Source: a virus. Taken from it: DNA of 45,391 bases. The notes beneath the pieces are model-generated. The model did not search any database. It saw only the letters and a list, made by a program, of their open reading frames with translations, and was not told the DNA's origin. A program made the position numbers and the translations under genes. How positions within the stretch are numbered: the first letter of the stretch is position 1; each line of letters begins with the position of its first letter. The stretch covers positions 1 through 45,391 of the IMG/VR virus record IMGVR_UViG_3300010397_000021. The stretch is one strand, 5' to 3'. Positions 9,119 through 31,472 of the stretch are shown one piece after another.

Positions 9119-9138
9119 GCGGTCACCCTACATTTACA

Positions 9139-9336: not shown

Positions 9337-9355
9337 TCCCGATCCGTTAATAGGG

Positions 9356-9541: not shown

Positions 9542-9552
9542 TAGCTTGTTGC

Positions 9553-9666
9553 TCACGCGGCCTCGCAATCTGCCGTTGCTTTGGCTTCGATCTGCTTCCG
9601 AATTTCCTTCAGAACCTTGTTTGTCAGCTTGTCGTAACTGATCTGTTTTTTCCGCTTCTTCGTCAT
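9553..9666 (-). CDS. Small basic peptide, 37 aa (below ORF-track cutoff)
   Basis: ATG at 9664-9666 follows CAGGAGGGTAAT. Hand translation: MTKKRKKQISYDKLTNKVLKEIRKQIEAKATADCEAA. Confidence 0.45.
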   Translation of the reverse strand: MTKKRKKQISYDKLTNKVLKEIRKQIEAKATADCEAA

Positions 9667-10126
9667 ATTACCCTCCTGATACCGTTATCCAAGTTACTTC
9701 GAGCGGATGCGGCGCTAGCCAACCGCACCCGCTTGCACACCGTGGTCGGGCATGTGCCTCCCTCTTGGTGCTATGCAGGATTTCGCCACCAAGTTGTCTG
9801 CGCTTTAACGACTCTCGTCACCCCTGCTGCCACCTTTCACCCTTGCGGGTATCCCGTTGACCGTCTCTCCGGCCTGTCTCGTTTTCCCCGTCTGGGTTAA
9901 GGCTTGTCATCGCCACAAATTACCGCCTACGTCGGCGTAGCTCTACGCTAGAGGGCTTTCACCCGCGAAGGCTGACTTAATGCCTTCCAGATTTTAAGTC
10001 TCTCGACTAAGGCTTCTGCCTCGCTATCCCATTCTTTCGTTTGGGCGCTCCGCTATTATCTAACGACCCGGACGGATAGGGTCGATCCCAGATGCTCCCG
10101 CTACGCAGTCACACCAGGCGATTCCG
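9667..10126 (-). ncRNA. Candidate structured non-coding RNA or long structured leader (class unknown)
   Basis: A 460-nt gap with no minus-strand ORF of 60 aa or more, in an otherwise overlap-packed operon, and visibly GC-richer than its surroundings. Hairpins: 9703-9712/9723-9732 (10 bp), 9764-9770/9787-9793 (7 bp), 9974-9980/9994-10000 (7 bp), 10064-10069/10079-10084 (6 bp), 9927-9931/9936-9940 (tetraloop). The 10-bp stem has a G-U pair only when read on the minus strand (A-C mismatch on plus). Confidence 0.3.
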
Positions 10127-10300
10127 TTAACTGGCTATCTTTTTGACCAGAGCCTCTGCTTCTTGCATCCAGGTCGCGCTAATCAGCCCATTTCTGCAAA
10201 GCAGGCCTTTTTCGTGCATAAGAAACGCGGTTTGCAACATTGCGATGAGATCGTTACGTTGCGTTGCCAGTTCCATGATCTTTTTGTCTTTGATGTCCAT
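10127..10300 (-). CDS. Hypothetical protein, 57 aa
   Basis: Start moved to Met16 (MDIKDKKIMELA), which avoids a 23-nt overlap with the upstream gene. Confidence 0.5.
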   Translation of the reverse strand: MDIKDKKIMELATQRNDLIAMLQTAFLMHEKGLLCRNGLISATWMQEAEALVKKIAS

Positions 10301-10322
10301 GTACGTTATCCCTATTCTTTCT

Positions 10323-10586
10323 TCAAACACTGTGCTTGCCGTCAAACGCAGCTTTCATCTTGTAATAATCGTCCATATCCCATACCAAATCGGCCAATGT
10401 CCGAATAGCCTTAACGATAGCTTCATACGCCGTGATCATCTCGCCATCCTCAGCCTCAACCCGCATCCTGACTATGGTATCGAGCGGGATGCTGTTAAGT
10501 GCGGCGGATGATATAATAACGCCTATTAGGCTGGTTTCAGCATCTAATTTCATGGTTTCGCTGAATAATGGGATAATGTCAGCCAT
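10323..10586 (-). CDS. Hypothetical protein, 87 aa
   Basis: Same-strand ORF with an 8-nt overlap with the upstream gene. Confidence 0.6.
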   Translation of the reverse strand: MADIIPLFSETMKLDAETSLIGVIISSAALNSIPLDTIVRMRVEAEDGEMITAYEAIVKAIRTLADLVWDMDDYYKMKAAFDGKHSV

Positions 10587-10836
10587 GGTTTTCTCCCTCG
10601 ATTAACACATATCTTGCCCTGAGACATCCGCCCTCAAGGTATTCATTGAGCGTGGTAATCTGGTATCCCTGCTTGCGCAGATCGCTGATGCGTGACCGCA
10701 AAGCAAAGCCGCGCGCGAAATCATCCCAAGTAATTCCGTGCATGCCTTTTTCCTGCAGCTTGCGCAGCACCATAGCCATGGCACACGGCATGTCTTTGGG
10801 ACAGGGAGGGGGTATGTAAAGCTCTAGCTGAATCAT
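10579..10836 (-). CDS. Winged-helix DNA-binding protein (putative), 85 aa
   Basis: 'ITWDDFARGFALRSRISDLRKQGYQITT...RARYVL' fits the wHTH pattern common in phage early regions. Confidence 0.5.
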   Translation of the reverse strand: MIQLELYIPPPCPKDMPCAMAMVLRKLQEKGMHGITWDDFARGFALRSRISDLRKQGYQITTLNEYLEGGCLRARYVLIEGENHG

Positions 10837-11153
10837 GTGGCGCTCCTATTCGCTGCGCGTTCGTTGGCATTCAACGTCCGCAGCAGGTCCACCCATACTT
10901 TAGCGCTATCATACCTTACTCTTGCCTTGTTCGCCGCCTTGCGAGATTTAACCATAATATCGAGATGCTTCTTATAATCAGGATGGCGCAGAGCAAAGGC
11001 CTCCTTCGCCGCCGCCGATGATTCATTGCATTCCACCGAAAGCTGAGAGAGGAGGGGCTTTTTATTTTCCTCCAGCAACTCTGCTGCAGCCTGAGCTTCC
11101 GCCCATGCCTCGCCAAGCGTTACCAGTTTTTCATGTATGTCCTGCGGATTCAT
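10833..11153 (-). CDS. Hypothetical coiled-coil protein, 106 aa
   Basis: Same-strand ORF, ATGA-coupled, Ala/Glu/Lys-rich. Confidence 0.6.
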   Translation of the reverse strand: MNPQDIHEKLVTLGEAWAEAQAAAELLEENKKPLLSQLSVECNESSAAAKEAFALRHPDYKKHLDIMVKSRKAANKARVRYDSAKVWVDLLRTLNANERAANRSAT

Positions 11154-11389
11154 TAGAAAGGCACCTCGTCAAAAGAAGTTTCGCGCGCTTGCGGTTTCTT
11201 TGCTTCTGATTTAAGTTTTGCCTTAAGTCGGAAATATTTCTTATTTCCATCCCTGGACACATTTATCCAGCCATTGAGCCAGTATTCCTTGCCATCAATA
11301 GTGATATTTCCGGTATAATCGGCATCCGATTTCCCTGCGCGCATGGCATCATTTTTAAATAATGCTCCCTGATTATCCTCTTTAGACAT
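11153..11389 (-). CDS. Small ssDNA-binding-like protein with SSB-type acidic C-terminal tip, 78 aa
   Basis: Ends in 'ETSFDEVPF' (compare E. coli SSB '...DFDDDIPF'). The N-terminal 'GALFKND...DYTGNITIDGKEYWLNGW' looks like a mini OB fold. Sits directly downstream of the annealase. Confidence 0.5.
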   Translation of the reverse strand: MSKEDNQGALFKNDAMRAGKSDADYTGNITIDGKEYWLNGWINVSRDGNKKYFRLKAKLKSEAKKPQARETSFDEVPF

Positions 11390-12092
11390 GCGCAGCCCCC
11401 TTGTTTATATCGTTAAATCCCTGTGACATCCCGGCCTTTTGCAACAGATCGGCCTTCATATTGTTCTTAATGTCTTCCAATTGATTAAAAATCTCTGGAT
11501 CGCCGCGCTTAAATACGGTTAGCTCGGGCTTATATTTTCCCCAGACAGCCCCAAGCTCTTTTTCATCTTCAACAGAGCGCAATTCATCCGCTATGGCTTC
11601 CCATTTGGCATTCTGCTTCTTAGCGGTCTCAAATCCAGCGCGCTGATCCAGCTTAACTTTAGTCCAGGGATCAACCGACCATCCCTTAAACACCCATTTG
11701 CCATTGCGCTGTTCAGCTTTGCATGGCACCCATACAGCGTCTAAATCGTATAAATAGCGGCCTATTCCCCACAAAACACCTGCGCGCTTAATCGCGTCTG
11801 AAATGGCCCCCTTTTCACTCTCTACATCCGTATCTCCAGCCCCATCGCTTTTATAAATCCACTTATCTTCTATATTAATTCCTAAGCGGCAGATAATCCG
11901 ACCTTTTGCTGTTTCAGAAATCTCATTACTCCATCCATGCTGGCCGCATACATCGTCTAAGCGATTAAACACATCCCGAGCATCGATATATGCCAAAGCC
12001 AATGCAGATGTACCATCACTGGTGAAGTGTTGCGCACGCCAGCTGACGGCATCCTTGGGAAAAGGCTCAAGCAATTTTGCTAGATCGATCAT
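11382..12092 (-). CDS. Rad52/Sak-like single-strand annealing protein, 236 aa
   Basis: 'LAYIDARDVFNRLDDVCGQHGW' and 'EKGAISDAIKRAGVLWGIGRYLYDL' match the Rad52_Rad22/Sak SSAP signature. Confidence 0.8.
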   Translation of the reverse strand: MIDLAKLLEPFPKDAVSWRAQHFTSDGTSALALAYIDARDVFNRLDDVCGQHGWSNEISETAKGRIICRLGINIEDKWIYKSDGAGDTDVESEKGAISDAIKRAGVLWGIGRYLYDLDAVWVPCKAEQRNGKWVFKGWSVDPWTKVKLDQRAGFETAKKQNAKWEAIADELRSVEDEKELGAVWGKYKPELTVFKRGDPEIFNQLEDIKNNMKADLLQKAGMSQGFNDINKGAAHV

Positions 12093-16166: not shown

Positions 16167-16403
16167 ATGCCAGGTGGAAGACCAAAAGGATCAACAAACG
16201 CAAAGAACATGGCGCTCAAAACCATGATCCTCAATTCACTTGAGAGGGTGGGCGGCGAAGAATACTTGATGCGACAGGCTGAAGAAAACCCATCGGCGTT
16301 TCTAACTATCCTTGGCAAGATTATCCCCTCTGAATTGAATGCCAAACTCTCTGGCGCTGTAAAGGTCAATGGAACTATCAACTTCGTACGACCGAGAGAT
16401 TAA
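16167..16403 (+). CDS. Terminase small subunit-like protein, 78 aa
   Basis: 'MPGGRPKGSTNAKN...' is a basic N-terminus. Lies directly upstream of, and overlapping, TerL. Confidence 0.45.
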   Translation: MPGGRPKGSTNAKNMALKTMILNSLERVGGEEYLMRQAEENPSAFLTILGKIIPSELNAKLSGAVKVNGTINFVRPRD

Positions 16404-17730
16404 CTTTCAGGTCGATATTCCTGAAGTGTTTCAGGACTTATTTGAGCCTAAGCGTTACAAAGTCTATTACGGTGGCCGCGGTGGCGCTAAATCCTGGGGA
16501 TTTGCTGATGCGCTGCTTATCATGGGTACTCAGCGCCCTTTGCGAATCTTATGCGCACGTGAGCTACAGAAATCAATAGCCGACTCTGTACATAAACTAT
16601 TATCCGACCAGATCATGAGTCTGGGCTTGGAAGAATTCTATGAAATCCAGAAGACCACCATCATTGGATTGAATGGCACGGAGTTCCTCTTCAACGGGCT
16701 TAAGCATAATGCCACGGAAATCAAGTCTACAGAGGGGATAGACATATGCTGGGTAGAGGAAGCCGAAAAAGTATCTGAAGCGTCCTGGGAGCTTTTAATA
16801 CCGACTATTCGCAAAGAGCATTCCGAGATATGGATTAGCTTTAATACCAAGCAGCCCAATGACGCGACCTATAAGCGCTTTGTTTTCGACGCGCCTGGCA
16901 ATTCAATTGTTAAGAAGGTATCCTATAAAGACAATCCATTCTTTCCCGATGTGCTTGAATATGAGCGATTGGAACTGCAGCGCAAAGACCCTAAAGCATA
17001 CGCGCATGTATGGGAGGGTGAATTCGATACGCGCTATTCTGGTGCGGTTTATGCGAAATGGATAGCCGATCTTAAGGATAAGGGACATATCAGGCCAGAT
17101 GTATTGCATGATCCAGCTTATCCAGTTTATACGCTGTGGGATTTAGGCTATTCAGATACCTGCGTGATCTGGTTTTACCAATCATCGGTCAGCGAAGTTC
17201 TATTTATTGATTACTATGAAAATAATGGCGAAGGCATTGGTCATTATTGTGATGTTCTGAAGGAGCGCAGCCAATACAATTACTATGCGCATTATGTTCC
17301 ACAGGACGCTGGCAAAAAGCTGATGGAGGCTAACGGGCGCTCAATTGTAGAGCAGGCATGGAAAGATCATGGAATACGCATGAGCGTGATTCCTGAGACA
17401 ACGCATGCTAACCGTATCGATGCACTACGTAAAACCTTGCCTGTCTGTTGGTTTAATTCTAATAGTTGCGCCCCAGGAATTGAAGCTGCGATGGCATATC
17501 ATTTTGAATATAATGAAGATTTACAGTCATTTAAAAAAGACCCCCATCATGATTGGTCATCACATGCATCCACTGCTTTAGAGTTGCTACCAAGTGTCTG
17601 GCGCGGTAGAATAAAGACGGTAGAAGAAATGCGGCGGGAAGCTATCGATAATAACTTTCACAGGCTGCGAAGAGAGAATAACCTGGTACAGGAAGACCCG
17701 TACCGTATTAAGCCGATGAGAAAGAAATGA
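16369..17730 (+). CDS. terL: Terminase large subunit (PBSX/Terminase_3-like), 453 aa
   Basis: Walker A 'YYGGRGGAKSWG', Walker B 'DICWVEEAE', C-terminal nuclease-like half. Confidence 0.9.
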   Translation: MELSTSYDREINFQVDIPEVFQDLFEPKRYKVYYGGRGGAKSWGFADALLIMGTQRPLRILCARELQKSIADSVHKLLSDQIMSLGLEEFYEIQKTTIIGLNGTEFLFNGLKHNATEIKSTEGIDICWVEEAEKVSEASWELLIPTIRKEHSEIWISFNTKQPNDATYKRFVFDAPGNSIVKKVSYKDNPFFPDVLEYERLELQRKDPKAYAHVWEGEFDTRYSGAVYAKWIADLKDKGHIRPDVLHDPAYPVYTLWDLGYSDTCVIWFYQSSVSEVLFIDYYENNGEGIGHYCDVLKERSQYNYYAHYVPQDAGKKLMEANGRSIVEQAWKDHGIRMSVIPETTHANRIDALRKTLPVCWFNSNSCAPGIEAAMAYHFEYNEDLQSFKKDPHHDWSSHASTALELLPSVWRGRIKTVEEMRREAIDNNFHRLRRENNLVQEDPYRIKPMRKK

Positions 17731-17864
17731 ACGCAATTTTTACATGTATCGGATCATTGTTTGCAGTAAGCATGGCGGTGATAGCCATTGCCGCGTGGCC
17801 AATAACATTAATGGGATTGTTGGCGTTGTGGGCAATAGTAGCATTACAGAGGGCCGTCAGATGA
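17727..17864 (+). CDS. Two-TM membrane peptide, 45 aa (below ORF-track cutoff)
   Basis: Hand translation: MNAIFTCIGSLFAVSMAVIAIAAWPITLMGLLALWAIVALQRAVR. ATGA overlaps with TerL and with the lipoprotein gene. Confidence 0.5.
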   Translation: MNAIFTCIGSLFAVSMAVIAIAAWPITLMGLLALWAIVALQRAVR

Positions 17865-18076
17865 AATCCTATATCGTTACGACTTTATTATTAGTATTAA
17901 CCGCTTGTGCTACACCCGAAACGATTCTTACTAAGGATGGCCAATACATATCATGCGGTGGTAGCTCAGTTGGCTCAGTGACTGGTGGTTATATCGGCTA
18001 TAGCCTTCAAAAAGATAATGATGATAAATGCGTCAAGGATCACGTTGCTATAGGATATAAACAAGTATCCCAATGA
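17861..18076 (+). CDS. Lipoprotein with glycine-zipper motif, 71 aa
   Basis: Start moved to MKSYIVTTLLLVLTAC (lipobox LTAC). 'GGSSVGSVTGGYIGY' is a glycine zipper. Confidence 0.6.
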   Translation: MKSYIVTTLLLVLTACATPETILTKDGQYISCGGSSVGSVTGGYIGYSLQKDNDDKCVKDHVAIGYKQVSQ

Positions 18077-18831
18077 AAGTAGCGGTATGGCGTACTGGGC
18101 ATGAGATAGCCGATACGGTAGCAAGCGCCATTCAAGAGGGATTGCCAGATATAGCAGCGCCAAATGTCGGCATTGGTTATGGCATTCTTCGTGGCATGAC
18201 TGCGGGATTTAAGCAATATCCGCACTGGTTCAATGTGGACCGAGGCTATTGGAAGCCCAGTCATTACAATGGTTATTATCGTATTAGCCTGCGTAGCACG
18301 CAACAGACCTTTGGCCTGGATAAGCTGAAACCAGACTATGACCGTTTGCGCGCGCTTGGCATCGAGCTTTATCCGTGGCGTGGGTTTGATGATAGTAAAT
18401 CGGTATTGGTATGCCCGCCTACGCACCATGTAAGTGAGTTCTTTGGTCTTGGCCAATTATGGAAATACCCTTCCACCAAATGTATATTGCGCAATAAGGG
18501 TGATGCATCTCCCATCAATTTTGATGATTATAACTATGTCTACACCTTTAACTCCTCCGTTGGATGGCAAGCACTCGCTGCTGGTATCCCCTGCATATCC
18601 GATCCTAAACATTCCATTATCGGCGCATGGTTTGGTAATTCGCTAACAGATAGTTTATCAAAAAAACAACATACTGAGCGCGAGCAGTTATTCGCAGTCA
18701 TGAGTGGATTGCAATTAACGCTAAAAGAAATGCGTGAAGGTAAGTTATGGCCGCTGATGAGCCAATTAATGTCTTTATCGGATGGGATTCAAGAGAATCC
18801 GTTGGATCATATGTCGCCGCTCACAGCATAA
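18073..18831 (+). CDS. Putative glycosyltransferase (GT-B / capsule-synthesis-like), 252 aa
   Basis: 'SVLVCPPTHH...' and 'YTFNSSVGWQALAAGIPCIS' resemble the C-terminal half of KpsS/KpsC-type or GT-B enzymes. Weak call. Confidence 0.35.
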   Translation: MKVAVWRTGHEIADTVASAIQEGLPDIAAPNVGIGYGILRGMTAGFKQYPHWFNVDRGYWKPSHYNGYYRISLRSTQQTFGLDKLKPDYDRLRALGIELYPWRGFDDSKSVLVCPPTHHVSEFFGLGQLWKYPSTKCILRNKGDASPINFDDYNYVYTFNSSVGWQALAAGIPCISDPKHSIIGAWFGNSLTDSLSKKQHTEREQLFAVMSGLQLTLKEMREGKLWPLMSQLMSLSDGIQENPLDHMSPLTA

Positions 18832-19556
18832 AGAAACGCACTCATCATCCTATTAATATTCGCTATCTTAAGCATCGCGAACTTCGTAAAGCCGGTCATT
18901 TCGCACGTCCATGGATTGTCAATGGCAGCGAAGGAGAGTGGACGGATTTAGTTGATGGCAAAACTTTCAGCACGGAATTCAGCCATACACGTTTTCTAGT
19001 GCCGCATCTTATGGGGTATAAGGGCTGGGCGCTATTTATGGATGCCGATATGATATTTTTATCGGATATACGCAAATTGTTTTCATTCTGTGATCCAAAA
19101 TACGCAGCAATGTGTGTAAAGCACGTTTACCCGCCCACCTCTGATAAAACGAAAATGGATGGCAGAACGCAGCGCTTTTATCATCGCAAGAACTGGTCAA
19201 GCTTTGTCCTGTGGAACTGTGCGCATCCAGCTAATATTGAAATAACACCAGAGAAGGTTAACTTTCTTTCAGGCCGTGATCTCCATAGTTTCTGCTGGCT
19301 CGATGATATGCAGATCGGCAATATTCCTTATACCTATAATTATATCTCCGGTATCAGTCCCAAAATGCCAGTCAATAGTTCTGGCCTTAACGCTGGAAAG
19401 CCCGATGTCATTCATTACAGTGATGGCGGTCCATGGTTTGAAGAATGCCAGGAAGTTCCATTCGCAGAGTTATGGAATCTTGAATACGAGGATTGGCAGC
19501 GAAGAGGTGAGGGGAATAAATACAGCGACGTGCCAACGACGAGGTTTGAGCTATGA
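18747..19556 (+). CDS. Glycosyltransferase family 8-like (GT-A, DxD), 269 aa
   Basis: 'FSHTRFLVPHLMGYKGWALFMDADMIFLSDIRKLF' (DxD) and 'DVIHYSDGGPWFEE' parallel LgtC-type GT8 motifs. Overlaps the previous ORF by 85 nt. Confidence 0.7.
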   Translation: MAADEPINVFIGWDSRESVGSYVAAHSIKKRTHHPINIRYLKHRELRKAGHFARPWIVNGSEGEWTDLVDGKTFSTEFSHTRFLVPHLMGYKGWALFMDADMIFLSDIRKLFSFCDPKYAAMCVKHVYPPTSDKTKMDGRTQRFYHRKNWSSFVLWNCAHPANIEITPEKVNFLSGRDLHSFCWLDDMQIGNIPYTYNYISGISPKMPVNSSGLNAGKPDVIHYSDGGPWFEECQEVPFAELWNLEYEDWQRRGEGNKYSDVPTTRFEL

Positions 19557-20215
19557 CCATTGCTCTTCTATGCCCAACACGCGCGCGGCCCAAGCAATGC
19601 AAACGCATGATTGAAAGCGCATACAATACCAGTAAGGATACAGTTAATATTTATCTCGGTTTTACAGATGAATCATATTGTGGTGGCGGATATCAACTGC
19701 CCGATTATCCCACCGCGCATAAATGGAATATGCTAGCAATTGAAGCGATGAAAGACCCGAGCAATAAGCTGTTTATGCTTGCTGCTGATGACATGATATT
19801 CACAACGCCATGCTGGGATCAAGCCCTGCTCGATCATTACAATGCATTGGATAATAAAGTTCACGTATATGCGCTGCAAGATAGCCGTGATCCCAATGGC
19901 ACACCACATCCGATAGTAACCCGGGAATATATCGAAGCACTGGGATGGTTTTTGCCACCGATTTTTATGCATTGGTATGTCGATAGCTGGACCGTGGAGA
20001 TTGCCAAAGCCAATAATTGCTTCACGCATATGAAGGATTATTTGCTGGTACACGATAAGCCCAGCGATAAAGGACAAGCTGATGAAACACATAATCGCAT
20101 ACGCGGTATGGGATGGCATGAACGGGATAAATATGTAGCAGAGAAATGCACAAATTACCTTGAGCAGCAGATATTACGATTATCGCTTGCGATGAAAATG
20201 CAGAGGGCTGCATGA
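19553..20215 (+). CDS. Glycosyltransferase, GT-A/GT2-like, 220 aa
   Basis: 'IALLCPTRARPKQCKRMIESA' (N-terminal beta-alpha), 'LFMLAADDMIFTTPCWD' (DxD-like), 'YVDSWTVEIA'. Confidence 0.5.
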   Translation: MTIALLCPTRARPKQCKRMIESAYNTSKDTVNIYLGFTDESYCGGGYQLPDYPTAHKWNMLAIEAMKDPSNKLFMLAADDMIFTTPCWDQALLDHYNALDNKVHVYALQDSRDPNGTPHPIVTREYIEALGWFLPPIFMHWYVDSWTVEIAKANNCFTHMKDYLLVHDKPSDKGQADETHNRIRGMGWHERDKYVAEKCTNYLEQQILRLSLAMKMQRAA

Positions 20216-20388
20216 ATAGCTTCCTGGAATGGTATGATAAGCCAAAAGATAACGCAAGGTTTTGCGGCGAGTATTATCATTGGGCATATACTGAAAAAGA
20301 TAAGTTTCGTTCTAAAGACTGGTTTTGTGATGCATGTATGAAGCGCATGGGTGCATGGAATCTATTGTTAGAAGGTAAGATTCAATGA
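20212..20388 (+). CDS. Small Cys-containing protein, 58 aa (below ORF-track cutoff)
   Basis: Hand translation: MNSFLEWYDKPKDNARFCGEYYHWAYTEKDKFRSKDWFCDACMKRMGAWNLLLEGKIQ. ATGA overlaps on both sides. Confidence 0.5.
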   Translation: MNSFLEWYDKPKDNARFCGEYYHWAYTEKDKFRSKDWFCDACMKRMGAWNLLLEGKIQ

Positions 20389-21395
20389 AAATCTGGATCA
20401 CTGGCATTGCAGGATTTCTTGGCTCACATTTAGCAGAGGCGCTGATTGCCGAAGGACACGAGGTAAGAGGAAATGATAACTTACTATGTGGTGATTATAA
20501 TAATATTACTAAAACAATTAGAGATATTACCCATTTCGCATGCCTGGAATATGATTGCTGCAATCAAACGGATATGTTTAATGCGCTGAAACTATACAAC
20601 TCAGATGTCTTAATACATTGCGCTGCCACTGCTCACGAAGGTCTAAGCTCCTTCAGCCCATCCTTTATCACGCGTAACATTTATGAAGCTAGCGTTGCTA
20701 CATTCAGCGCAGCGATTGCTGCTGGCGTGAAGCGCATCATCTATATGAGCAGTATGTCGCGTTATGGCGAACAATCTTTACCATTCACTGAGGGTATGCG
20801 GCCTAAGCCCGTTGATCCGTATGGCATAGCTAAAGTCGCTGCCGAAGATACGCTTAAAGTTCTCTGCAAAACCCATGGTGTAAAATATGCCATCGCCGTT
20901 CCACATAATATTATCGGTATACGCCAGCGCAGTTGCGATCCTTATCGTAATGTTGCAGCTATTATGATTAATCGCTGTAAGCAGGGTAAGCCGCCAATCA
21001 TCTATGGCGACGGATCACAGAAGCGCTGCTTTAGTCCTATTGCAGATGTGATTCCATCATTATTGCGCATGGTGCATGGCGATGCGGATGGCGAGGTAGT
21101 GAATATCGGTCCAGATTTAGGCGAGATTACAATAAAAGAATTGGCTGACAAGATATGTAAGCTAACTAACTACACCAATGATCCGCTTTATATGCCTGGG
21201 CGCCCTAATGAAGTACATGATGCCTATTGCTCCAGTGATAAGGCTCGGAGAATACTGGGTTATGAACCGAAGCAATCCATCGACGAATGCTTAAAGCAGA
21301 TGGTGGATTACATTCAGCCAATGCCATTCGTATATGATTTTCCGATAGAGATCGAGCGCGGATGTCCTGAAACCTGGGCAAAGAGGATTATGTGA
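20385..21395 (+). CDS. NAD-dependent NDP-sugar epimerase/dehydratase (extended SDR), 336 aa
   Basis: Rossmann 'ITGIAGFLGSHL', catalytic 'SSMSRYG' and 'PYGIAKVAAE' (YxxxK). Confidence 0.85.
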   Translation: MKIWITGIAGFLGSHLAEALIAEGHEVRGNDNLLCGDYNNITKTIRDITHFACLEYDCCNQTDMFNALKLYNSDVLIHCAATAHEGLSSFSPSFITRNIYEASVATFSAAIAAGVKRIIYMSSMSRYGEQSLPFTEGMRPKPVDPYGIAKVAAEDTLKVLCKTHGVKYAIAVPHNIIGIRQRSCDPYRNVAAIMINRCKQGKPPIIYGDGSQKRCFSPIADVIPSLLRMVHGDADGEVVNIGPDLGEITIKELADKICKLTNYTNDPLYMPGRPNEVHDAYCSSDKARRILGYEPKQSIDECLKQMVDYIQPMPFVYDFPIEIERGCPETWAKRIM

Positions 21396-21808
21396 GCATT
21401 GTAGCAATCTCTGGCGGATTTGATCCGCTTCATCACGGTCATATTAGTCTTATTGAAGAGGCAGCAGAGCATGGCAAAGTCGTAGTCATTCTAAACAGCG
21501 ATGTGTGGCTTAAACGCAAAAAAGGCTTTGTCTTTATGCCATATGATAACCGTGCCCGTATTCTGCTTGCATTGCGCGATGTCTATAACGTAATTCCTGC
21601 CGATGATTATGATGATACGGTTTGTAATACACTTAAACAATTAAAGCCGGATTGCTTTGCCAATGGCGGGGATCGTACCGCACAGAACACGCCGGAGCTT
21701 AAGCTATGCAATGATTTGCGTATTAAGCCGCTTTTCAATGTCGGCGGGTCTAAAGTAGAAAGCAGTAGTGATTTAGTGAATGCAGCGGTGCAGTATCATG
21801 ATTGGTAA
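21392..21808 (+). CDS. HIGH-motif nucleotidyltransferase (cytidylyl/adenylyltransferase family; RfaE domain II / TagD-like), 138 aa
   Basis: 'ISGGFDPLHHGHISLIEEA', 'VVILNSD', 'ANGGD' match the nucleotidyltransferase superfamily. Confidence 0.75.
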   Translation: MSIVAISGGFDPLHHGHISLIEEAAEHGKVVVILNSDVWLKRKKGFVFMPYDNRARILLALRDVYNVIPADDYDDTVCNTLKQLKPDCFANGGDRTAQNTPELKLCNDLRIKPLFNVGGSKVESSSDLVNAAVQYHDW

Positions 21809-22085
21809 GCGCTTCGTACGCAGACAATGGGGCTGGTATCTGACGCTGCTAGATCGCGCGCATTTTAAGGTAAAGCTATTATGCTTTAAGCGCGATGGAC
21901 GATTATCAAACCAATATCATCGTCTTCGTAGCGAGCTATGGCTTTTCCTCTCAGGAGAACAATCTGGCGCATGGCGCAGAATAAATGAGGATGAGCTGCA
22001 TACATACCATGCCATCAGACCAACGTTAGTACTCGAAATACAATATGGCGATAAATGCGATGAGAAGGATATAGTGCGTGTCTAA
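21798..22085 (+). CDS. Cupin, mannose-6-phosphate isomerase type II-like, 95 aa
   Basis: 'RRQWGWYLTLLDRAHFKVKLLCFKRDGRLSNQYHRLRSELWLFLSG' parallels the RPWG.Y...KVK...LS.Q.H..R.E.W motif. Start set at MIGKRF. Confidence 0.65.
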   Translation: MIGKRFVRRQWGWYLTLLDRAHFKVKLLCFKRDGRLSNQYHRLRSELWLFLSGEQSGAWRRINEDELHTYHAIRPTLVLEIQYGDKCDEKDIVRV

Positions 22086-22626
22086 ATCTTTCGATGAGCT
22101 CTGGCGCTTTATCAATACGCGCAGTTCTGTCATTACCGTTCAAGAGCGTAGCGAACTTAACTATGTTTATGACTTGATGCGCGGTGCTGCATCCTACCTA
22201 GAAGTGGGAACGGCAGAGGGTAATTCTCTCTATGTGTTATCACACGCCATCAAGCCCGGTGGCGTTATTAGCTATATCGATTATGGCGAGAAGCATACGG
22301 CATTGCCGCGCAACGAAATCATAGCGCTTTTGCACAATGAGGGAATTGAGGTGGCTGGTTATTTGGGCAACAGCCATGATCCAAAGACTTATAGCGCGAC
22401 AATGCCCTACGATGTGGTGCTAATTGACGCTGGTCATTCTTATGAGGATGTCATTGCTGATGCAATTGCCTATGGGCGGTTTGCCACCAAATATCTCATT
22501 TTCCATGATATATGCCTACCAGAAGTAGAACGAGCGTTTGAATGGTATTGCAAGCAGCGCTCCCTCAATAAGGCCTATAAATTTATTAACAGCGATACAT
22601 TTGGATATGGGATTTTGAAGCTATGA
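22078..22626 (+). CDS. Class I SAM-dependent methyltransferase (Methyltransf_24 / sugar O-MTase-like), 182 aa
   Basis: 'YLEVGTAEGNSLYVL' (motif I), 'YDVVLIDAGHSYEDV', 'LIFHDI'. GTG start. Confidence 0.7.
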   Translation: MSKSFDELWRFINTRSSVITVQERSELNYVYDLMRGAASYLEVGTAEGNSLYVLSHAIKPGGVISYIDYGEKHTALPRNEIIALLHNEGIEVAGYLGNSHDPKTYSATMPYDVVLIDAGHSYEDVIADAIAYGRFATKYLIFHDICLPEVERAFEWYCKQRSLNKAYKFINSDTFGYGILKL

Positions 22627-24350
22627 ATAATTCAATTGCAGTTATTACCACTTTTCCAAATGCGTCGTGGGAAATCTATAGCAAGAAAATGCTACAATCA
22701 TTCACACGGTTCTGGCCCGCTGAAATACCATTATTGCTTGAGCTTGATGATGATCTTTTAGTATCGGATGTACAAAAAATACTGCGCCAGCAGGATGCTG
22801 TAGCTGTGGGATGGGATAAGGAGCATCAGGAATTTGTTGAACGCAATAAAGGCAAGGATGATCCTAATGATTATCGTAAGCAGCCTGTACGATTCTGTCA
22901 TAAAATATTTGCCATAAAGCGAGCTTTAAAGGCGATCGAATCCGCTAAAGCCAATAATGAAAATCCAGCACGCTATCTTATCTGGATGGACGCAGATGTA
23001 GTAACCAATCGCTCTGTAACTATCGATGAGATCAAAGAATGCTTGCCCAAAGAGGGTGAGGCAGTTGCTTATATGGGGCGTAAGGATTGGGATCATAGTG
23101 AATGCGGGTGGATGGCATTTGATCTGGAAAATGGCGGCGCGGGTATCATTGAAATGATGATATCCGGCTATATCACTGATGAAATACTTGGTTATGAGCA
23201 GTTACACGATTCCTGGGTATTCGACATGGTATGCGGCATTACTAAAGTTAAATGCACTAATCTTACCTATGGAAAGCCCGGTATGGATATTTGGCCTCAT
23301 AGTCCCATGGGAAAATGGTCTACGCATTATAAAGGCCCTGTAGCAAAATCAGCATTGGAGGAGCCGACGCGAGTTAATCAGGGAAATTATGGACAACAGG
23401 TTATTATCCAAACTCGTAATGCTATTCCAAACGAAAAAATATGTCAGCATATTGAGCGTAACCAGCAATTGATTTCTGAATGGATACGTCCTTGCAAAGA
23501 AAATACGGAAAAACTTATCGTTGTTTCTGCTGGCCCTACATTAATTGCCGAGGATTTACTTAAGGAATATGAAGAAGGCTACAAAATCATCGCCGTAAAA
23601 CATGCGCTCATTCCTCTTAAAGAGGCTGGCATTAAGCCATGGGCATGTATTTTACTCGATCCACGTCCGCATGTGGCTGATTTTGTCAAAAATGCCGATC
23701 CAGATATATTATGGTTTGTTGCAACTCAAGTTGATCCGGCTGTTACATTAGAGCTGCTAGCGCGGGGCTGTCGCATTATTGGCTATCATGCTTCGGTAAA
23801 TGCCAATGAAGAAACGCTCACTTCAAAACAGGCCTATTCCATCATCAGCGGCGGGAGCGCCACGGCTACGCGCGGTCTTTATATGTTAAATCATTTAGGT
23901 TTTAAGCGGTTTAAGCTCTATGGCTACGATCTTTGCCTTCCCGACAAGCCTGATTTGAATGCGCGCGATGACCAAGGACAGCCAAAATATCTGGAATTCT
24001 CAGTAGGAATGAATGATCCGCTATATAACGTCAAGCGCTGTTTCTGGGCAGAACCTCAACTTATAGCGCAGTTTGAAGAAATTAGCGACATTATTAAACG
24101 CAACGTATTTGAAATCGAGGCCATAGGCTACGGCGCCGTTCCTTTTATTATTAATGCTCAGAGGGTGGCCAATTTGCGCAGGAGCAAAATACGCAGTAAA
24201 ATGATCGGTGATATTTTGCCGTCTTATCATGAGGTAATTAAATGCAGCCGCCAATGGAACAGTCACAGAAAGACCAGCTTCTTAACCAAATGGCTGGGCA
24301 GATTGCCGCTGATCCACCACAAACCGACGCTGGCCATGAAATCCTTGTAG
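22623..24350 (+). CDS. Two-domain putative glycosyltransferase: N-terminal GT-A-like (DxD) fused to a DUF115/MptE-like (motility accessory factor, Maf-type) domain, 575 aa
   Basis: N-terminal 'IAVITTFPN...' and 'YLIWMDADVV'. C-terminal 'LIVVSAGPTLIAEDL...KIIAVKHALIPLKEAGIKPWACILLDPRP...SGGSATATRGLYMLNHLGFKRFKLYGYDLC' resembles DUF115 of flagellin nonulosonic-acid transferases. Confidence 0.55.
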   Translation: MNNSIAVITTFPNASWEIYSKKMLQSFTRFWPAEIPLLLELDDDLLVSDVQKILRQQDAVAVGWDKEHQEFVERNKGKDDPNDYRKQPVRFCHKIFAIKRALKAIESAKANNENPARYLIWMDADVVTNRSVTIDEIKECLPKEGEAVAYMGRKDWDHSECGWMAFDLENGGAGIIEMMISGYITDEILGYEQLHDSWVFDMVCGITKVKCTNLTYGKPGMDIWPHSPMGKWSTHYKGPVAKSALEEPTRVNQGNYGQQVIIQTRNAIPNEKICQHIERNQQLISEWIRPCKENTEKLIVVSAGPTLIAEDLLKEYEEGYKIIAVKHALIPLKEAGIKPWACILLDPRPHVADFVKNADPDILWFVATQVDPAVTLELLARGCRIIGYHASVNANEETLTSKQAYSIISGGSATATRGLYMLNHLGFKRFKLYGYDLCLPDKPDLNARDDQGQPKYLEFSVGMNDPLYNVKRCFWAEPQLIAQFEEISDIIKRNVFEIEAIGYGAVPFIINAQRVANLRRSKIRSKMIGDILPSYHEVIKCSRQWNSHRKTSFLTKWLGRLPLIHHKPTLAMKSL

Positions 24351-26475: not shown

Positions 26476-26901
26476 ATGGCAAGTCAGATTGAATTTCGCC
26501 AATTCTTGCCAGAATGCATGGATTTTTTGCCATTAGAAGCAGAATTAATGATTAGGCGTGCGGTACGACGTACTCCTTGTAATATATTAGGTGAAGATGA
26601 AGTTTTGGAGAGAGTCAAGCTAGGGCTTGGTAGCCTTTACCTTGTAAAAGATAATCACAAGTTGATTGGTATTGTACATCTATTCTGGTTTATTGGCGTA
26701 AAGGAAAAAATACTAAATATTGAATTGGTTGGCGGCAATGGAATCCATAATTGGAAAGATGAATTAAGGAAATTCATTCGTCAATTGATGACACATAATA
26801 ATGTCAAACTTCTTATTATAAATGGTCGTAAGGGCTGGGGTAAAATTTTCCCAGAATTAAAAACAGAATCCACGACATTTTCAGCAACGCTTACCCATTG
26901 A
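26476..26901 (+). CDS. Hypothetical protein, 141 aa (AT-rich; faint GNAT-like pattern)
   Basis: 'ILNIELVGGNGIHNW...LLIINGRKGWGKIF'. Composition is clearly AT-richer than the neighbouring genes. Confidence 0.5.
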   Translation: MASQIEFRQFLPECMDFLPLEAELMIRRAVRRTPCNILGEDEVLERVKLGLGSLYLVKDNHKLIGIVHLFWFIGVKEKILNIELVGGNGIHNWKDELRKFIRQLMTHNNVKLLIINGRKGWGKIFPELKTESTTFSATLTH

Positions 26902-26947: not shown

Positions 26948-27646
26948 ATGGGAAAAACAATTGACACAATTTCCAATTTTGCTGCACCAGTGGCCGGGTT
27001 TATGGCCGGAGGCCCAATAGGGGCTGCAGCAGCCGGAGGATTAAATAATTATCGGCAGAATCGTAGTCTTGGTGGCGCACTTTTATCGGCCGGAGGCTCC
27101 TATTTAGGCAGCAATATTGGCGGTGCAATGTTTCCAAGCGCGGGCAATGTAGGTGGTGCGCTCAATACTGCCATGGGCGGAGGTGCAGTTAGTAATTTAA
27201 TTGGCAATACCCTTCCTGCCGAACTTGCTAATGTTGGCTTAGGTTCTGCCTTAGGTGGATATTTTGGTGGCAATGCAGCTAGCAGTTTAGCTCCCCAGAA
27301 AAATGCCAATGCTACGGGTGAAGGTATGACTTCTGCCCCCTTTAATCCATCTCAAGCAAATGCTGCGCCATTGCCTTTAAGTCTTCAGACCCTGGGAGGC
27401 CTTACCTCTAACCAGCAAGCCACTAATATTGCTAATAAGGGCGTATATGGAGGCGGCTTAGGGCCAGAAGAGCAGAGTTATTTCCTAAATTTAGAGAATC
27501 GCAAGCTAGTCGATCCGCAAGGGCAGGTCGGCTCTATGAGTTCGTTACAGCCGATTGAGCAATCATACCTACAGCAGCTTGGTTTGGGGGGTAATAGCGA
27601 TCCCACAAGCTTGTTACAGGCCATGAGTAAGTGGAAACCATCTTAA
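26948..27646 (+). CDS. Gly/Ala/Asn-rich virion-associated protein (putative), 232 aa
   Basis: Low-complexity G/A/S/N sequence located in the head module. Confidence 0.5.
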   Translation: MGKTIDTISNFAAPVAGFMAGGPIGAAAAGGLNNYRQNRSLGGALLSAGGSYLGSNIGGAMFPSAGNVGGALNTAMGGGAVSNLIGNTLPAELANVGLGSALGGYFGGNAASSLAPQKNANATGEGMTSAPFNPSQANAAPLPLSLQTLGGLTSNQQATNIANKGVYGGGLGPEEQSYFLNLENRKLVDPQGQVGSMSSLQPIEQSYLQQLGLGGNSDPTSLLQAMSKWKPS

Positions 27647-27655
27647 AGGAGCATT

Positions 27656-27994
27656 ATGCAATACGAGCCGAAGTTTGGACGAGTATTAATCAAGCGCGAA
27701 GTACAAGAGAAAACAACCGGCGGCATTATTCTGCCAGATACGATAGCGAAAAGACACGCTTCCTGCGTTGGAAAGATTATCGCCCTTGGCGAAACCGCTG
27801 GGTTTACAGAAACCTATGATGACCAGGGTGAGCGCATCGTTATCCGCACTATGAAAGTAGATGATAATGTCATTTTCGGCCGTCATTCCGGCGCATGGCT
27901 CGATGCCACCTATTCTCCTAAAGGCGAAGCGCAAGACGATGGAACGTTATTCATCTGTCAGGATCAAGATATTTTAGCAGTAATTAAGGAGTAA
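27656..27994 (+). CDS. groES: Co-chaperonin GroES homologue, 112 aa
   Basis: 'KFGRVLIKREVQEKTTGGIILPDTIAK...GKIIALGE...VDDNVIFGRHSG...ICQDQDILAVIKE' aligns along the whole length of E. coli GroES (mobile loop 'TTGGIILP'). Confidence 0.85.
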   Translation: MQYEPKFGRVLIKREVQEKTTGGIILPDTIAKRHASCVGKIIALGETAGFTETYDDQGERIVIRTMKVDDNVIFGRHSGAWLDATYSPKGEAQDDGTLFICQDQDILAVIKE

Positions 27995-30062: not shown

Positions 30063-30980
30063 ATGGTAATGAATACTGGTGCATTTTCAGAAGACCTTTG
30101 GCCCGGCATTTTGTCTTGGTTCGGTGATTCTTATCAGGATTACGAGCCCATTTGGGAGCGCTTGGTAGATAAGCATCAATCGGACAAACAGTTCGAGAAA
30201 TTTCAGGGCATCACCAATTATGGCCTTGCTGGTATTAAAGATCAGGGCGCGGGTATCCCGTATCGTGATAAGTTCCAGGGTTTCCCTCGTGAAATTATCA
30301 ACGTTACCTATGGTATCGGCTCAACCATTACCTATGAGATGATGCGCTATGACCAGTATGATAAGTTTCGCGCAATTCCGCAGCAGCTTGCTCAGGCTGT
30401 ACGGCGCACTGAAGAAACTGTTGTTGCTAGCCTTCTCAACAATGGCTTCTCTACTGCGACGAATCCGACGCTGACGGCGGACGGCAAAAGCCTGTTCAAT
30501 TCTGCACATCTTCTGGTGGCATCTAATAACGTTACCCAGAAGAACACGCCGTCCACGGCTTCCGATCTCATGCAGACTTCGCTGGAGCAGGCCTATATCG
30601 ACATCAGCGCCTTCGTCGATGACCAGAACCTGCCGATTGTGGTAACGCCGAAATTGCTGGTGGTTTCCAAAGAGCAGCAGCATTTGGCGCGCAAGATTCT
30701 GGAAACGGAATATGAGGTCGATAGCGGCAATAACACGATCAACCCGGTTTCTAGCTCCAATAAGCCGATTGATTGGCTGTGGAGTCCGTGGCTGACCGAC
30801 GCCGATGCATGGTTCATCAAAACTGACGAAGCCGATGGCTTGGTCTTTACCGATGTCGATGAGGTGATGCTGGATCGGGATAATGATTTCGATACCAAAA
30901 ACCTGAAGTTTAGCGCCATGCGCCTCTTTGGTACGGGTGCGGTCAATTATCTTGGTTATTACGGTTCACCGGGGGCATAA
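30063..30980 (+). CDS. Major capsid protein (HK97-fold, putative), 305 aa
   Basis: Size, position after the scaffold, and an N-terminal pattern typical of ~300-aa phage major heads. Confidence 0.7.
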   Translation: MVMNTGAFSEDLWPGILSWFGDSYQDYEPIWERLVDKHQSDKQFEKFQGITNYGLAGIKDQGAGIPYRDKFQGFPREIINVTYGIGSTITYEMMRYDQYDKFRAIPQQLAQAVRRTEETVVASLLNNGFSTATNPTLTADGKSLFNSAHLLVASNNVTQKNTPSTASDLMQTSLEQAYIDISAFVDDQNLPIVVTPKLLVVSKEQQHLARKILETEYEVDSGNNTINPVSSSNKPIDWLWSPWLTDADAWFIKTDEADGLVFTDVDEVMLDRDNDFDTKNLKFSAMRLFGTGAVNYLGYYGSPGA

Positions 30981-30983
30981 GCC

Positions 30984-31472
30984 ATGACGCGTTATTCCGA
31001 TAATATCTATAGCGGCTTTCAGGCTACGACTTCGGCAACTTCCAGTAAAAGCCCAGTCGTGCTTCGTAAGACGTATAATTTTGCCGGTGCTGGCAATACC
31101 ACCTCTGTTACGCAGAGCGGCGTATTTCCGCCTGGTACGCAGAATCTTACCGCGCGTATCTTTATCACGAACGCAGCATCGGCTACGGTTAGTGATAAAA
31201 TTACCGTCTCTGCCGGTGGGACGACTCTTCTGACCATCGATCAGTTTGGATCAGCTGCCGGTATCGCCGGGGATACGAAAGCATCGGTCGCTCGATTTAC
31301 CTATGTTGCATCTGCCTGTGCGCAGCCGCCGATCCCGTCTGGCGCTAATAACGGTGGTGAAATTCCTTTCTCTGTGACCTTCACCCCTGTCTCGGCAGAT
31401 AAAGTCGGCACTTATCAAGTAGAGATGTCTTTCAATCGCGCCGATACCAACACACTAGGGGTAACCGCTTAA
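30984..31472 (+). CDS. Ser/Thr/Ala-rich virion protein, 162 aa
   Basis: 'ATTSATSSKSP', 'AGAGNTTSVTQSG'. Immediately after the capsid gene. Confidence 0.55.
   Translation: MTRYSDNIYSGFQATTSATSSKSPVVLRKTYNFAGAGNTTSVTQSGVFPPGTQNLTARIFITNAASATVSDKITVSAGGTTLLTIDQFGSAAGIAGDTKASVARFTYVASACAQPPIPSGANNGGEIPFSVTFTPVSADKVGTYQVEMSFNRADTNTLGVTA

Follow-up and report, generated by a model that had tools for sequence, protein, structure and literature searches.

What does a bacteriophage do with a block of sugar-handling enzymes lodged between its terminase and portal genes, and which molecule do these enzymes modify? The question is raised by IMG/VR virus record IMGVR_UViG_3300010397_000021, a viral DNA of 45,391 nucleotides analysed over its whole length (the window), in which an island of 11 open reading frames (ORFs), all on the + strand, fills positions 17727-24350 between TerL and the portal gene. 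[quoted passage not shown] A fuller version of this answer, which we consider possible and hold less firmly, is that a large uncultured podophage clade of global distribution, with probably Gram-negative hosts, O-glycosylates its virion with a Kdo-containing, methylated and lineage-variable glycan by means of a phage-adapted Maf enzyme and a minimal new Kdo-transferase-like family, using the host's cytidine monophosphate-activated Kdo (CMP-Kdo).

Layout and history of the island

The window begins and ends with an exact 123-bp direct repeat (1-123 = 45269-45391), and these two identical ends make it a complete, circularly assembled phage genome with a unit length of about 45,268 bp. The coordinates and shared + strand of the island ORFs reported by an earlier sequence-only reading of this DNA agree with the sequence; its count of 12 genes does not, since its own list sums to 11 ORFs. 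The island and its two boundary genes are laid out as follows.

16369-17730, + strand: TerL, the upstream boundary; Pfam Terminase_3 on an identical metagenome contig; 4-nt overlap between its stop and the first island ORF.
17727-17864, + strand: 45-aa hydrophobic peptide with about two transmembrane segments, variable accessory; maximum Kyte-Doolittle value over a 19-residue window 2.35.
17861-18076, + strand: 71-aa lipoprotein, variable accessory; signal peptide and LTAC lipobox, Gly-rich.
18073-18831, + strand: 252-aa compact GT-B-like glycosyltransferase, core gene; predicted retaining, beta-Kdo-transferase-like fold.
18747-19556, + strand: 269-aa GT8-like retaining glycosyltransferase, core; Pfam GT8 (PF01501) 7.8e-5, 22.8 bits, under the 24.3 cutoff; PHROG 28018, 3e-54.
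19553-20215, + strand: 220-aa GT2-like protein of GT-A type, accessory, in the closer subclade only; matched only by PHROG 14945 'glycosyltransferase', 3.6e-19.
20212-20388, + strand: 58-aa ORF with three Cys, variable; no family match in Pfam, NCBIfam, PHROG or PADLOC.
20385-21395, + strand: 336-aa extended short-chain dehydrogenase/reductase (SDR) of the NDP-hexose 4-epimerase type, accessory; Pfam Epimerase 6.5e-40.
21392-21808, + strand: 138-aa HxGH cytidylyl/adenylyl-transferase, accessory; Pfam CTP_transf_like (PF01467) 3e-15, 57 bits against a cutoff of 21.
21780-22085, + strand: 101-aa cupin of the phosphomannose isomerase type, accessory; Pfam MannoseP_isomer C-terminal 1.5e-9, 38.5 bits against a cutoff of 23.6.
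22078-22626, + strand: 182-aa class I O-methyltransferase of the cation-dependent type, core domain; Pfam Methyltransf_24 2.6e-7.
22623-24350, + strand: 575-aa two-domain transferase, core; retaining GT-A domain (about residues 1-245, DxD at D123/D125) and Maf/MptE-like domain (about 270-530).
24242 (or 24290, the gene caller's start)-26458, + strand: portal, the downstream boundary; the orthologue in relative L108 matches Pfam SU10_portal.

TerL is 41-46% identical to the annotated TerL of P22-like and Hollowayvirus phages, and the portal is 24-29% identical to the portals of Pelagibacter, Roseobacter and Caulobacter podophages. Every junction of the island is an overlap, of the 4-nt ATGA/GTGA type in 8 of the 11 upstream junctions, and neither promoter-like sites (23, against 29.7 expected from shuffled sequence) nor terminator-like sites (10, against 9.8) are enriched within it. 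The overlapping genes and the absence of promoter and terminator signals fit translation-coupled expression of the island within the late operon, in keeping with the earlier suggestion that a block lacking a separate promoter gap should be expressed with the late genes. The idea of an autonomous moron that has a promoter and a terminator to itself was dropped, such sites being at or below the shuffled expectation. The island lies about 15 kb away from the integrases, a hydrophobic segment of the transmembrane type is predicted in 0/9 of its enzymes, the 45-aa peptide and the lipoprotein being its sole membrane-directed products. PADLOC gave no defence-system matches among the ten island proteins scanned (all but the SDR). 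At its 3' end the 252-aa ORF overlaps the GT8-like ORF by 85 nt (18747-18831); a comparable overlap of about 100 nt is seen at this junction in relatives L002 and L003 (roughly 120-130 nt between longest ORFs), and disorder is predicted for the C-terminal tail of the 252-aa protein, which lies in the overlap.

Relatives were gathered from IMG/VR by TerL, by a portal-profile scan and by a metagenome scan with a Maf-domain profile, which added 69 loci. IMG/VR relatives whose TerL is 71-78% identical carry the same island genes in the same order, with island proteins 45-70% and portals 63-72% identical. Wherever a locus holds both the family portal and the Maf-like gene, the latter lies directly upstream of the former (61/61 loci), and all examined relatives with a portal identity of about 34% or more are island-bearing, over a range from 72% down to 34%. 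TerL and portal are otherwise adjacent, as had been assumed earlier: the two genes are separated by 3-10 nt in the closest annotated TerL relatives (P22-like, Hollowayvirus) and by 156-368 nt in 11 loci of a sister clade whose portals are about 30-35% identical. Comparing the synteny of this junction, a check that the sequence-only reading had proposed, finds the island in 38 loci, where the TerL-portal interval measures 3.8-8.5 kb, and not in the 11 sister-clade loci. Among the 185,579 species genomes of GTDB, the relatives that a TerL profile picked out are at most 54% identical, and all lack the island. Two contigs, L188 (WNGB01008112.1) and L190 (WNFZ01001585.1), show a permuted order on one strand (portal, about 3 kb of other genes, island, TerL), with the island still between the two genes.

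Synteny across this deep clade, together with a divergence like that of core genes, points to an old, vertically inherited module, and the simplest history would be one insertion at the base of the clade followed by vertical inheritance. The block had earlier been described as visibly AT-richer than its flanks, and this had been taken as a sign of horizontal acquisition. The difference is marginal: GC content is 0.442 in the island, 0.446 in TerL, 0.464 in the portal gene, 0.455 in TerL and portal together, 0.478 in the other structural genes and 0.475 in the genome. The composition matches that of TerL and portal, and the island is syntenic and as diverged as core genes; recent horizontal acquisition was dropped on both composition and synteny. 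For one pair of relatives, the ratio of nonsynonymous to synonymous substitution rates (dN/dS) comes to 0.10 in the Kdo-transferase-like gene, 0.19 in GT8 and 0.17 in the GT-A.Maf gene, compared with 0.12 in portal and 0.09 in capsid; purifying selection acts on the island as strongly as on those two genes. TerL identity falls to 36-56% in some relatives, among them L118, L129, L173, L174 and L178, while island, portal and capsid gene remain together, and this exchange of TerL around an intact block links the island to the head module.

The conserved core consists of the Kdo-transferase-like protein, GT8, GT-A, the O-methyltransferase and the Maf domain. A minimal island is found in the deep relatives L130, L134 and L135, with the Kdo-transferase-like protein, GT8, a separate 236-290-aa GT-A protein and a 451-465-aa Methyltransf_24/MptE-like fusion. 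Three of the core domains, GT-A, methyltransferase (MT) and Maf, occur as GT-A.Maf, MT.Maf and GT-A.MT.Maf proteins, and these three alternative fusions of the same domains are a classic sign that they work together. Marine contig L228 (VTLG01010936.1), from another lineage, contains at 7720-11558 a GT8 gene, a 798-aa GT-A/MT/MptE-like triple fusion and another methyltransferase, placed between replication genes and the small terminase gene; it also encodes DNA polymerase A, ribonucleotide reductase, Hsp20 and TerS, and about 30 similar marine contigs were found. Tailoring genes of the window's subclade are those for the SDR, the nucleotidyltransferase, the cupin and the GT2-like protein. Elsewhere L108 has an extra GT17-family transferase and an HNH endonuclease (2051-2572) between its Kdo-transferase-like gene and GT8, L109 has a Methyltransf_23-like protein and a weak 2-oxoglutarate-Fe(II) (2OG-Fe(II)) oxygenase-like protein (E 0.005), and L130 has an FkbM-type methyltransferase and a radical-SAM/SPASM enzyme. 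Tailoring genes that vary with lineage, as in O-antigen and capsule loci, suggest by analogy that the structure of the glycan differs between lineages.

Enzymes and predicted sugar

On profile and fold searches of the island ORFs, almost every glycan-type assignment made earlier from the sequence held. Among them is the fusion of a GT-A domain to a DUF115/Maf-like domain in the 575-aa protein, which is borne out by both kinds of search. Pfam MptE-like (DUF115, PF01973) matches residues 283-441 at 5.6e-20 (72.2 bits against a cutoff of 34.6), and the AlphaFold2 model (pLDDT 85) has the Maf structure 5MU5 as its top Foldseek match in the PDB (E 3.7e-9), while the N-terminal domain (about 1-245) matches GT6/GT8 structures such as alpha-1,3-galactosyltransferase, the ABO transferases, LARGE1 and GlyE. 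A sequence-profile search gave no PDB match for this protein. The motifs of the MptE-like domain are kept across 13 diverse homologues. The full-length Maf/PseD architecture is lacking, NCBIfam FlagModPseD scoring 32.5 bits against a cutoff of 670 and covering the central domain only. In an exhaustive phmmer search with clustering at 50% identity, homologues fell into 1,599 clusters at E <= 1e-3 and 141 at E <= 1e-30; judged from contig names, the contig sets include groundwater (Hainich) and marine (TARA) assemblies, and the length classes fit four architectures, namely GT-A.Maf, MT.Maf, GT-A.MT.Maf and GT-A alone.

Maf-type domains have a single characterised function, the O-glycosylation of protein Ser/Thr residues in the cytoplasm before export (PMC4065374, 10.1101/2020.06.03.131540, PMC11339370), and the Maf of Clostridium botulinum transfers Kdo from CMP-Kdo to Ser/Thr (10.1101/2020.06.03.131540, PMC11339370). 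The bacterial enzymes (Aeromonas caviae Maf1, Magnetospirillum 5MU5, C. botulinum Maf) share the MptE-like/DUF115 catalytic domain with the island protein. They are soluble cytoplasmic enzymes that use CMP-activated ulosonic acids (Kdo for the C. botulinum enzyme), and the island protein is likewise predicted to be soluble. Unlike them, the island domain is fused to a retaining GT-A domain (in relatives, to an O-methyltransferase) and has no flagellin-binding flanks; its gene is phage-encoded next to the portal gene, whereas bacterial Maf loci have nonulosonic-acid or flagellar genes nearby and this one does not.

The 252-aa protein has no Pfam, NCBIfam or PHROG match. Its AlphaFold2 model (pLDDT 89.4) nevertheless finds, as its top 24 Foldseek matches in the PDB, only WbbB (GT99), KpsC (GT107) or KrkA (GT140), with E values of 7e-5 to 2e-3 and probabilities of 0.91-1.00, at TM-scores of only about 0.3-0.42. 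The "GT-B-like" label given to it earlier was right as to fold type and can be refined to Kdo-transferase-like on these matches. Its profile also matches the CMP-binding stretch 'TxNSSVGxEA' of WbbB, with the family's invariant F159-N160-S161(-S162)-x-G164 aligned to WbbB residues 285-325 (E 0.098), so that a Ser-Ser phosphate-binding stretch 'NSSVG' is common to the 252-aa protein and WbbB-type enzymes. The modified GT-B fold is shared too, although the known enzymes are about 100-150 residues longer and act on lipid-linked glycans. On the model, and given its small size and unrecognisable family motifs (below), we call it Kdo-transferase-like in fold and not a member of GT99, GT107 or GT140. 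Its family is found in 39 island-bearing loci and in 0/28 sister loci.

A link to Kdo comes from the relatives. L134 has a full-length kdsB directly after the portal gene, inside the structural module (6180-7046, - strand), which scores 299 bits against an NCBIfam equivalog cutoff of 281 and only 25 bits with PseF. L209 has a kdsB-like gene upstream of TerL (150-716), and L003 (12790-12909, the same as L112 7693-7812) keeps, inside its island, a relic of 40 aa from the KdsB N-terminus, fused in frame ahead of the O-methyltransferase. No ulosonic-acid genes are present in the window's island. Taken together, kdsB in relatives, the fold of the 252-aa protein and the transfer of Kdo by a Maf enzyme make Kdo, drawn from the host's CMP-Kdo pool, the most likely signature sugar. 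Pseudaminic (Pse) or legionaminic (Leg) acid was dropped as the ulosonic acid, the CMP-sugar synthetases of the relatives being of the KdsB type (299 against 25 bits for PseF). The link to Kdo in turn suggests a Gram-negative host, which the lipoprotein fits.

Among the remaining transferases, the GT8-like protein has orthologues that are also weak against Pfam GT8, and its sole PDB match is a weak one to the O-antigen enzyme WbbM (E 0.024). Nine orthologues, including that of Pelagibacter phage Mosig, keep D99-A-D101 and H223-Y-S-D-G227-G-P229-W invariant; the corresponding GT8 motif of LgtC-type enzymes is HxxGxxKPW. In the 220-aa GT2-like protein, D79-D80 and an N-terminal CPTRxRP are invariant, and there is no PDB sequence match. 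The methyltransferase is structurally nearest to family-3 O-methyltransferases (1e-9).

The SDR had been called an epimerase/dehydratase, of which the epimerase half stands: its best PDB match is the Thermotoga UDP-glucose 4-epimerase 4ZRM (5e-49), followed by other 4-epimerases and UXS. Its GxxGxxG site (TGIAGFLG), S122 and Y146-G-I-A-K150 are invariant, and it scores below every NCBIfam equivalog cutoff. A 4,6-dehydratase was rejected on the same PDB matches and on the missing TDE motif, the protein reading 'SSMSRYG' in place of 'TDEVYG' and thus lacking the dehydratase Asp-Glu pair. In the 138-aa nucleotidyltransferase H14-x-G16-H17 is invariant among orthologues. NCBIfam RfaE domain II (1e-15) and TagD (2e-12) match far under their equivalog cutoffs, and PDB matches are ethanolamine-phosphate and glycerol-3-phosphate cytidylyltransferases and 5X3D, which is deposited as phosphoenolpyruvate phosphomutase and which we take to be the Fom1 cytidylyltransferase domain. 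Heptose-1-phosphate, glycerol-3-phosphate and ethanolamine-phosphate enzymes score alike against it, and it is predicted to be a cytidylyltransferase-like enzyme for a phospho-alcohol or sugar phosphate. Its gene is missing in L002 and L118 and replaced in L109. The cupin, which has no PDB sequence match, keeps Q45, H47, E52 and H74 invariant and is sugar-phosphate isomerase-like. In L003 the kdsB relic directly follows the nucleotidyltransferase and cupin genes, and the idea may be raised that these two enzymes might replace KdsB and KdsD.

The small ORFs are the least constant part of the island. The 45-aa peptide is absent in L003 and has a 46-aa ORF in its place in L109; the lipoprotein matches NCBIfam YgdI/YgdR below its cutoff (3.4e-6), and L002 has a different 142-aa lipoprotein-like ORF at that position. 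Small Cys-rich ORFs in relatives are unrelated to the 58-aa ORF and lie at other positions.

Candidate acceptors and competing explanations

No polyprenol-phosphate transferase, flippase, polymerase or ligase was found in the genome by Pfam and PHROG scans. Lacking lipid-carrier machinery and any membrane enzyme, the pathway would assemble its glycan directly on a cytoplasmic acceptor. Two small proteins encoded after the major capsid gene are the best candidates.

30984-31472, + strand: 162-aa putative glycan acceptor, 26% Ser/Thr, directly after the major capsid gene.
31489-31854, + strand: 121-aa second putative acceptor, 20% Ser/Thr, after the capsid gene.

Neither has a family annotation, PHROG included, and both are judged likely candidates from their sequences and distribution: the family profile of the former is found in 34 island-bearing loci and that of the latter in 29, each against 0/28 sister loci. 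The former had already been singled out, as a Ser/Thr-rich structural protein, in the sequence-only reading. Four small proteins are limited to island-bearing phages, the other two being encoded at 26476-26901 and 26948-27646, while portal, GroES-like protein, scaffold-like protein, two small head proteins and capsid are common to the island-bearing and island-free clades. A capsid extension specific to island carriers, as in mycobacteriophages, was sought, none being seen.

In the mechanism that we propose, the island would be a soluble glycosylation pathway without a lipid carrier, probably transcribed late with the head genes. The Maf-type domain would modify Ser/Thr residues of a virion protein with an ulosonic acid in the cytoplasm, a step for which the action of bacterial Maf on flagellin before export is the model, and the 252-aa Kdo-transferase-like enzyme may attach the ulosonic acid too, or instead. 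The sugar would most likely be Kdo from the host CMP-Kdo pool. Hexoses from UDP-sugars could next be added by the GT8, GT-A and GT2-like enzymes and the hydroxyl groups of the glycan capped by the methyltransferase, while the SDR, the cytidylyltransferase-like enzyme and the cupin may widen the donor pool or add a phospho-substituent. The small Ser/Thr-rich proteins 30984-31472 and 31489-31854 are the likely acceptors, and swapping of tailoring genes, as in O-antigen loci, would give each lineage its own glycan. Late co-expression, the Kdo donor, the protein acceptor, its identity and the biological benefit are the parts of this mechanism that we infer. Of the two roles suggested in the sequence-only reading, virion glycosylation and remodelling of host envelope glycans, indirect evidence favours the first.

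Several observations weigh against virion glycosylation with Kdo. It is proposed from genomes, for a clade known only from uncultured members, and a virion protein as acceptor is its weakest link. The co-occurrence of the candidate acceptors with the island reflects a single evolutionary gain, and small proteins that evolve fast may go unnoticed; the capsid protein is not extended in island carriers, its length and C-terminal YGSPGA being the same in both clades. The flanking, acceptor-binding domains that flagellin Maf proteins have are missing from the Maf-like protein. Glycolipids or polysaccharides, not proteins, are the acceptors of the characterised Kdo transferases and of many GT8 enzymes, and in this phage the island opens with a membrane peptide and a lipoprotein. 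Most island-bearing contigs are without kdsB. As for the donor, the families GT99, GT107 and GT140 are defined by (K/R)xHP and by QxxxD with its nucleophilic Asp (PMC12887879), and the 252-aa protein has neither in recognisable form, which makes its donor uncertain. The CMP-binding motif (K/R)xHP is not recognisable in it, R140-N-K142-G standing at the expected spacing before NSS with R140 and K142 invariant in the family and no His-Pro (KrkA itself deviates at the K/R position), and its C-terminal half has no conserved QxxxD, the invariant acidic residue of the family being D56 in the N-terminal half.

The same enzymes could instead serve to remodel the glycans of the host envelope, working at the inner membrane face on lipid-linked intermediates of lipopolysaccharide (LPS), O-antigen or capsule, for instance by capping chains with beta-Kdo as WbbB does or by adding a core sugar in the manner of GT8 enzymes; the gain would be receptor masking, a block to superinfection or released virions that do not stick to debris. 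We consider this plausible but clearly less likely. In its favour, WbbB, KpsC and KrkA, the best fold matches of the 252-aa protein, all use lipid-linked glycans (PMC9587256, PMC12887879), and the membrane peptide and lipoprotein open the island. Integrases and a repressor also mark the phage as temperate, and temperate phages commonly cause seroconversion. LPS core transferases are among the members of GT8, and the only PDB match of the GT8-like protein is WbbM. Yet the island is unlike a seroconversion cassette, being coupled to TerL and far from the integrase, with no membrane-embedded transferase or flippase and no promoter or terminator of its own; conservation among relatives is lacking for the membrane peptide and lipoprotein, no non-protein acceptor is known for a Maf-type domain, and the linkage to the portal gene holds in 61/61 loci. 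The module moreover occurs in lytic-type gene sets, in L228, which encodes its own ribonucleotide reductase and DNA polymerase A, and in part in a T4-like pelagiphage, which argues against a lysogeny-specific role. That characterised Maf enzymes are all flagellin-specific, that the pathway is soluble and cytoplasmic and that the virion acceptors are so far only candidates would also agree with a protein target outside the virion, either a host protein such as flagellin or pilin, with shut-down of motility or of a receptor, or a phage protein absent from the particle. This is improbable to our minds: the flagellin-binding Maf architecture is missing and the PseD score is far under its cutoff, no flagellar or nonulosonic-acid genes were found in the complete 45-kb genome, the linkage to the head module is ancient and tight, and modifying new flagellin minutes before lysis would bring no obvious gain.

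Phage glycosyltransferases often modify DNA, according to a review (PMC12619734), and sugar-bearing hypermodified bases that evade restriction might be considered for an island that adjoins the gene of the packaging enzyme and that in L109 includes the weak 2OG-Fe(II) oxygenase match (E 0.005). We consider this very unlikely. Among the large ORFs of the genome (Pfam/PHROG; small unannotated ORFs remain), no dCMP/dUMP hydroxymethylase, TET/JBP enzyme, thymidylate-synthase-like hydroxymethylase, DNA polymerase or nucleotide-metabolism gene was found, and DNA hypermodification was dropped for want of a base-hydroxylating enzyme among them. The methyltransferase is of the O-type and not a DNA C5-methyltransferase, the folds match Kdo transferases, Maf, GT6 and GT8 and not the T4 alpha- or beta-glucosyltransferases, and neither ulosonic-acid chemistry nor a five-transferase pathway is known for DNA. 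Still less credible is a recent moron or selfish cargo with no role for the phage, an explanation that carries the earlier idea of horizontal acquisition to its extreme and could draw on the slightly lower GC of the island (0.442 against a genome mean of 0.475), its variable accessory genes and the HNH endonuclease within one relative's island. The comparative data contradict it: GC equals that of TerL and portal, the position is the same in 61/61 loci over portal identities from 72% down to 34%, the island proteins have diverged as much as core genes, and dN/dS is 0.10-0.19.

Relation to known systems and other gene content

Glycosyltransferases of phages have been known for DNA glucosylation and host seroconversion and, since 2023, for virion glycosylation in mycobacteriophages. 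In Che8, Corndog and Myrna, phage glycosyltransferases build O-glycans on capsid and tail proteins (Freeman et al. 2023, Cell Host Microbe 31:1216, via PMC10877033, PMC12619734). That system is cytoplasmic, has enzyme sets that vary by phage and is proposed to shield the particle, all of which resembles the role proposed for the island. The hosts there are actinobacteria and the glycans were shown by mass spectrometry, whereas the island's role is drawn from its genes, and Maf-type or Kdo-transferase-like enzymes are not known to be reported there. The mycobacteriophage glycosylation genes are presumably not located between terminase and portal. Chloroviruses and giant viruses (PBCV-1 A064R) encode their own soluble multi-domain glycosyltransferases, glycosyltransferase-methyltransferase fusions and sugar-nucleotide enzymes and build a capsid glycan in the cytoplasm; they infect eukaryotes, their linkages and enzyme families differ, and we know of no Maf-type or Kdo-type enzymes in them. 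Giant-virus glycosyltransferases are among the BFVD fold matches. Seroconversion cassettes such as GtrABC and O-antigen acetylase genes are, like the island, glycan-altering genes of temperate phages. Their enzymes are membrane-embedded, use bactoprenol-linked sugars in the periplasm and are expressed in the lysogen from near the attachment site; the island enzymes, unlike those of GtrABC cassettes, have no transmembrane segments and belong to a late operon.

Parts of the island recur in other phages. GT8-like homologues 31-42% identical are found in Synechococcus (S-SCSM2R), Pelagibacter (Mosig) and Caulobacter (CcrColossus-like jumbo) phages; in Mosig it adjoins a gene homologous to the N-terminal GT-A domain, two methyltransferases being encoded as well, and Streptomyces BK-cluster phages pair a GT2-like gene with a small adenylyltransferase. 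These clusters are uncharacterised sub-modules and, unlike the island, do not lie between TerL and portal. Among GenBank phages, megablast of the 10-kb region gave no match, and tblastn with the 575-aa protein found only the N-terminal GT-A homologue of Mosig, with no detectable Maf-like domain; 252-aa homologues were not searched there. UniProt/BFVD holds functionally unassigned MptE-like proteins labelled 'uncultured Caudovirales phage', and a full-text literature search found no description of the cassette, of a phage DUF115/MptE/Maf protein or of a phage Kdo transferase. The earlier impression that no characterised phage cassette matches thus persists in GenBank phages and in the literature searched. 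What is new is the enzyme set, its fixed position between terminase and portal, and the link to Kdo; phage-encoded glycosylation itself was already known.

If virion glycosylation by the island is real, it would be, to our knowledge, the first such system in phages of Gram-negative bacteria, carrying the phenomenon into a set of environmental phages that is very abundant and of a very different kind, and it would include the first Maf-type enzyme with a non-flagellin target and a protein that founds a new glycosyltransferase family. The enzymology would be new as well, with a flagellin-free Maf-type domain, a Kdo-transferase-like enzyme of 250 residues and three alternative fusions. A lineage-variable glycan coat would bear on how particles escape recognition, on whether they stick to cell debris and on the annotation of virome proteins, and compact soluble enzymes of this kind could be of practical use in E. 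coli, itself a producer of CMP-Kdo, for the glyco-engineering of proteins.

The rest of the genome is that of a phage predicted to be temperate from its integrases and repressor. By Pfam and PHROG assignments of large ORFs, the left arm encodes two integrase-family ORFs, a repressor, an O-like replication initiator and a Rad52-type recombinase. One integrase-family ORF (138-659) is the C-terminal portion of a gene that begins near the 3' end of the window, and the other, integrase-like ORF (1215-2282, - strand, 355 aa) has Phage_int_SAM_3 and a weak Phage_integrase match, so that two tyrosine-recombinase genes lie in close proximity. The right arm is a head-and-tail module with portal, GroES-like protein, a major capsid protein of the Mu gpT/Phage_capsid_4 type (30063-30980) and an 876-aa protein with a laminin-G domain (31861-34491); relatives have an SU10-type adaptor downstream of the portal. 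A 45,261-bp ENA metagenome contig encodes an identical 575-aa protein with matching neighbour genes. An ARAGORN search of the genome found no tRNA. The GroES/Cpn10-like gene (27656-27994, + strand; Pfam 1.9e-11) lies within the head module and is kept in island-bearing relatives and in 21/28 island-free relatives, and MW202674, an unrelated P22-like phage with the same TerL type, likewise encodes GroES; the protein may be a capsid-folding co-chaperonin resembling T4 gp31. In the early region, a 129-aa ORF (7863-8252, - strand) matches the end of a PCRF domain (PF03462, 6e-12), has no GGQ domain and includes the motif SPF, which we take to be the stop-codon-recognition tripeptide of release factor 2 (RF2), and it looks like an RF2 fragment.

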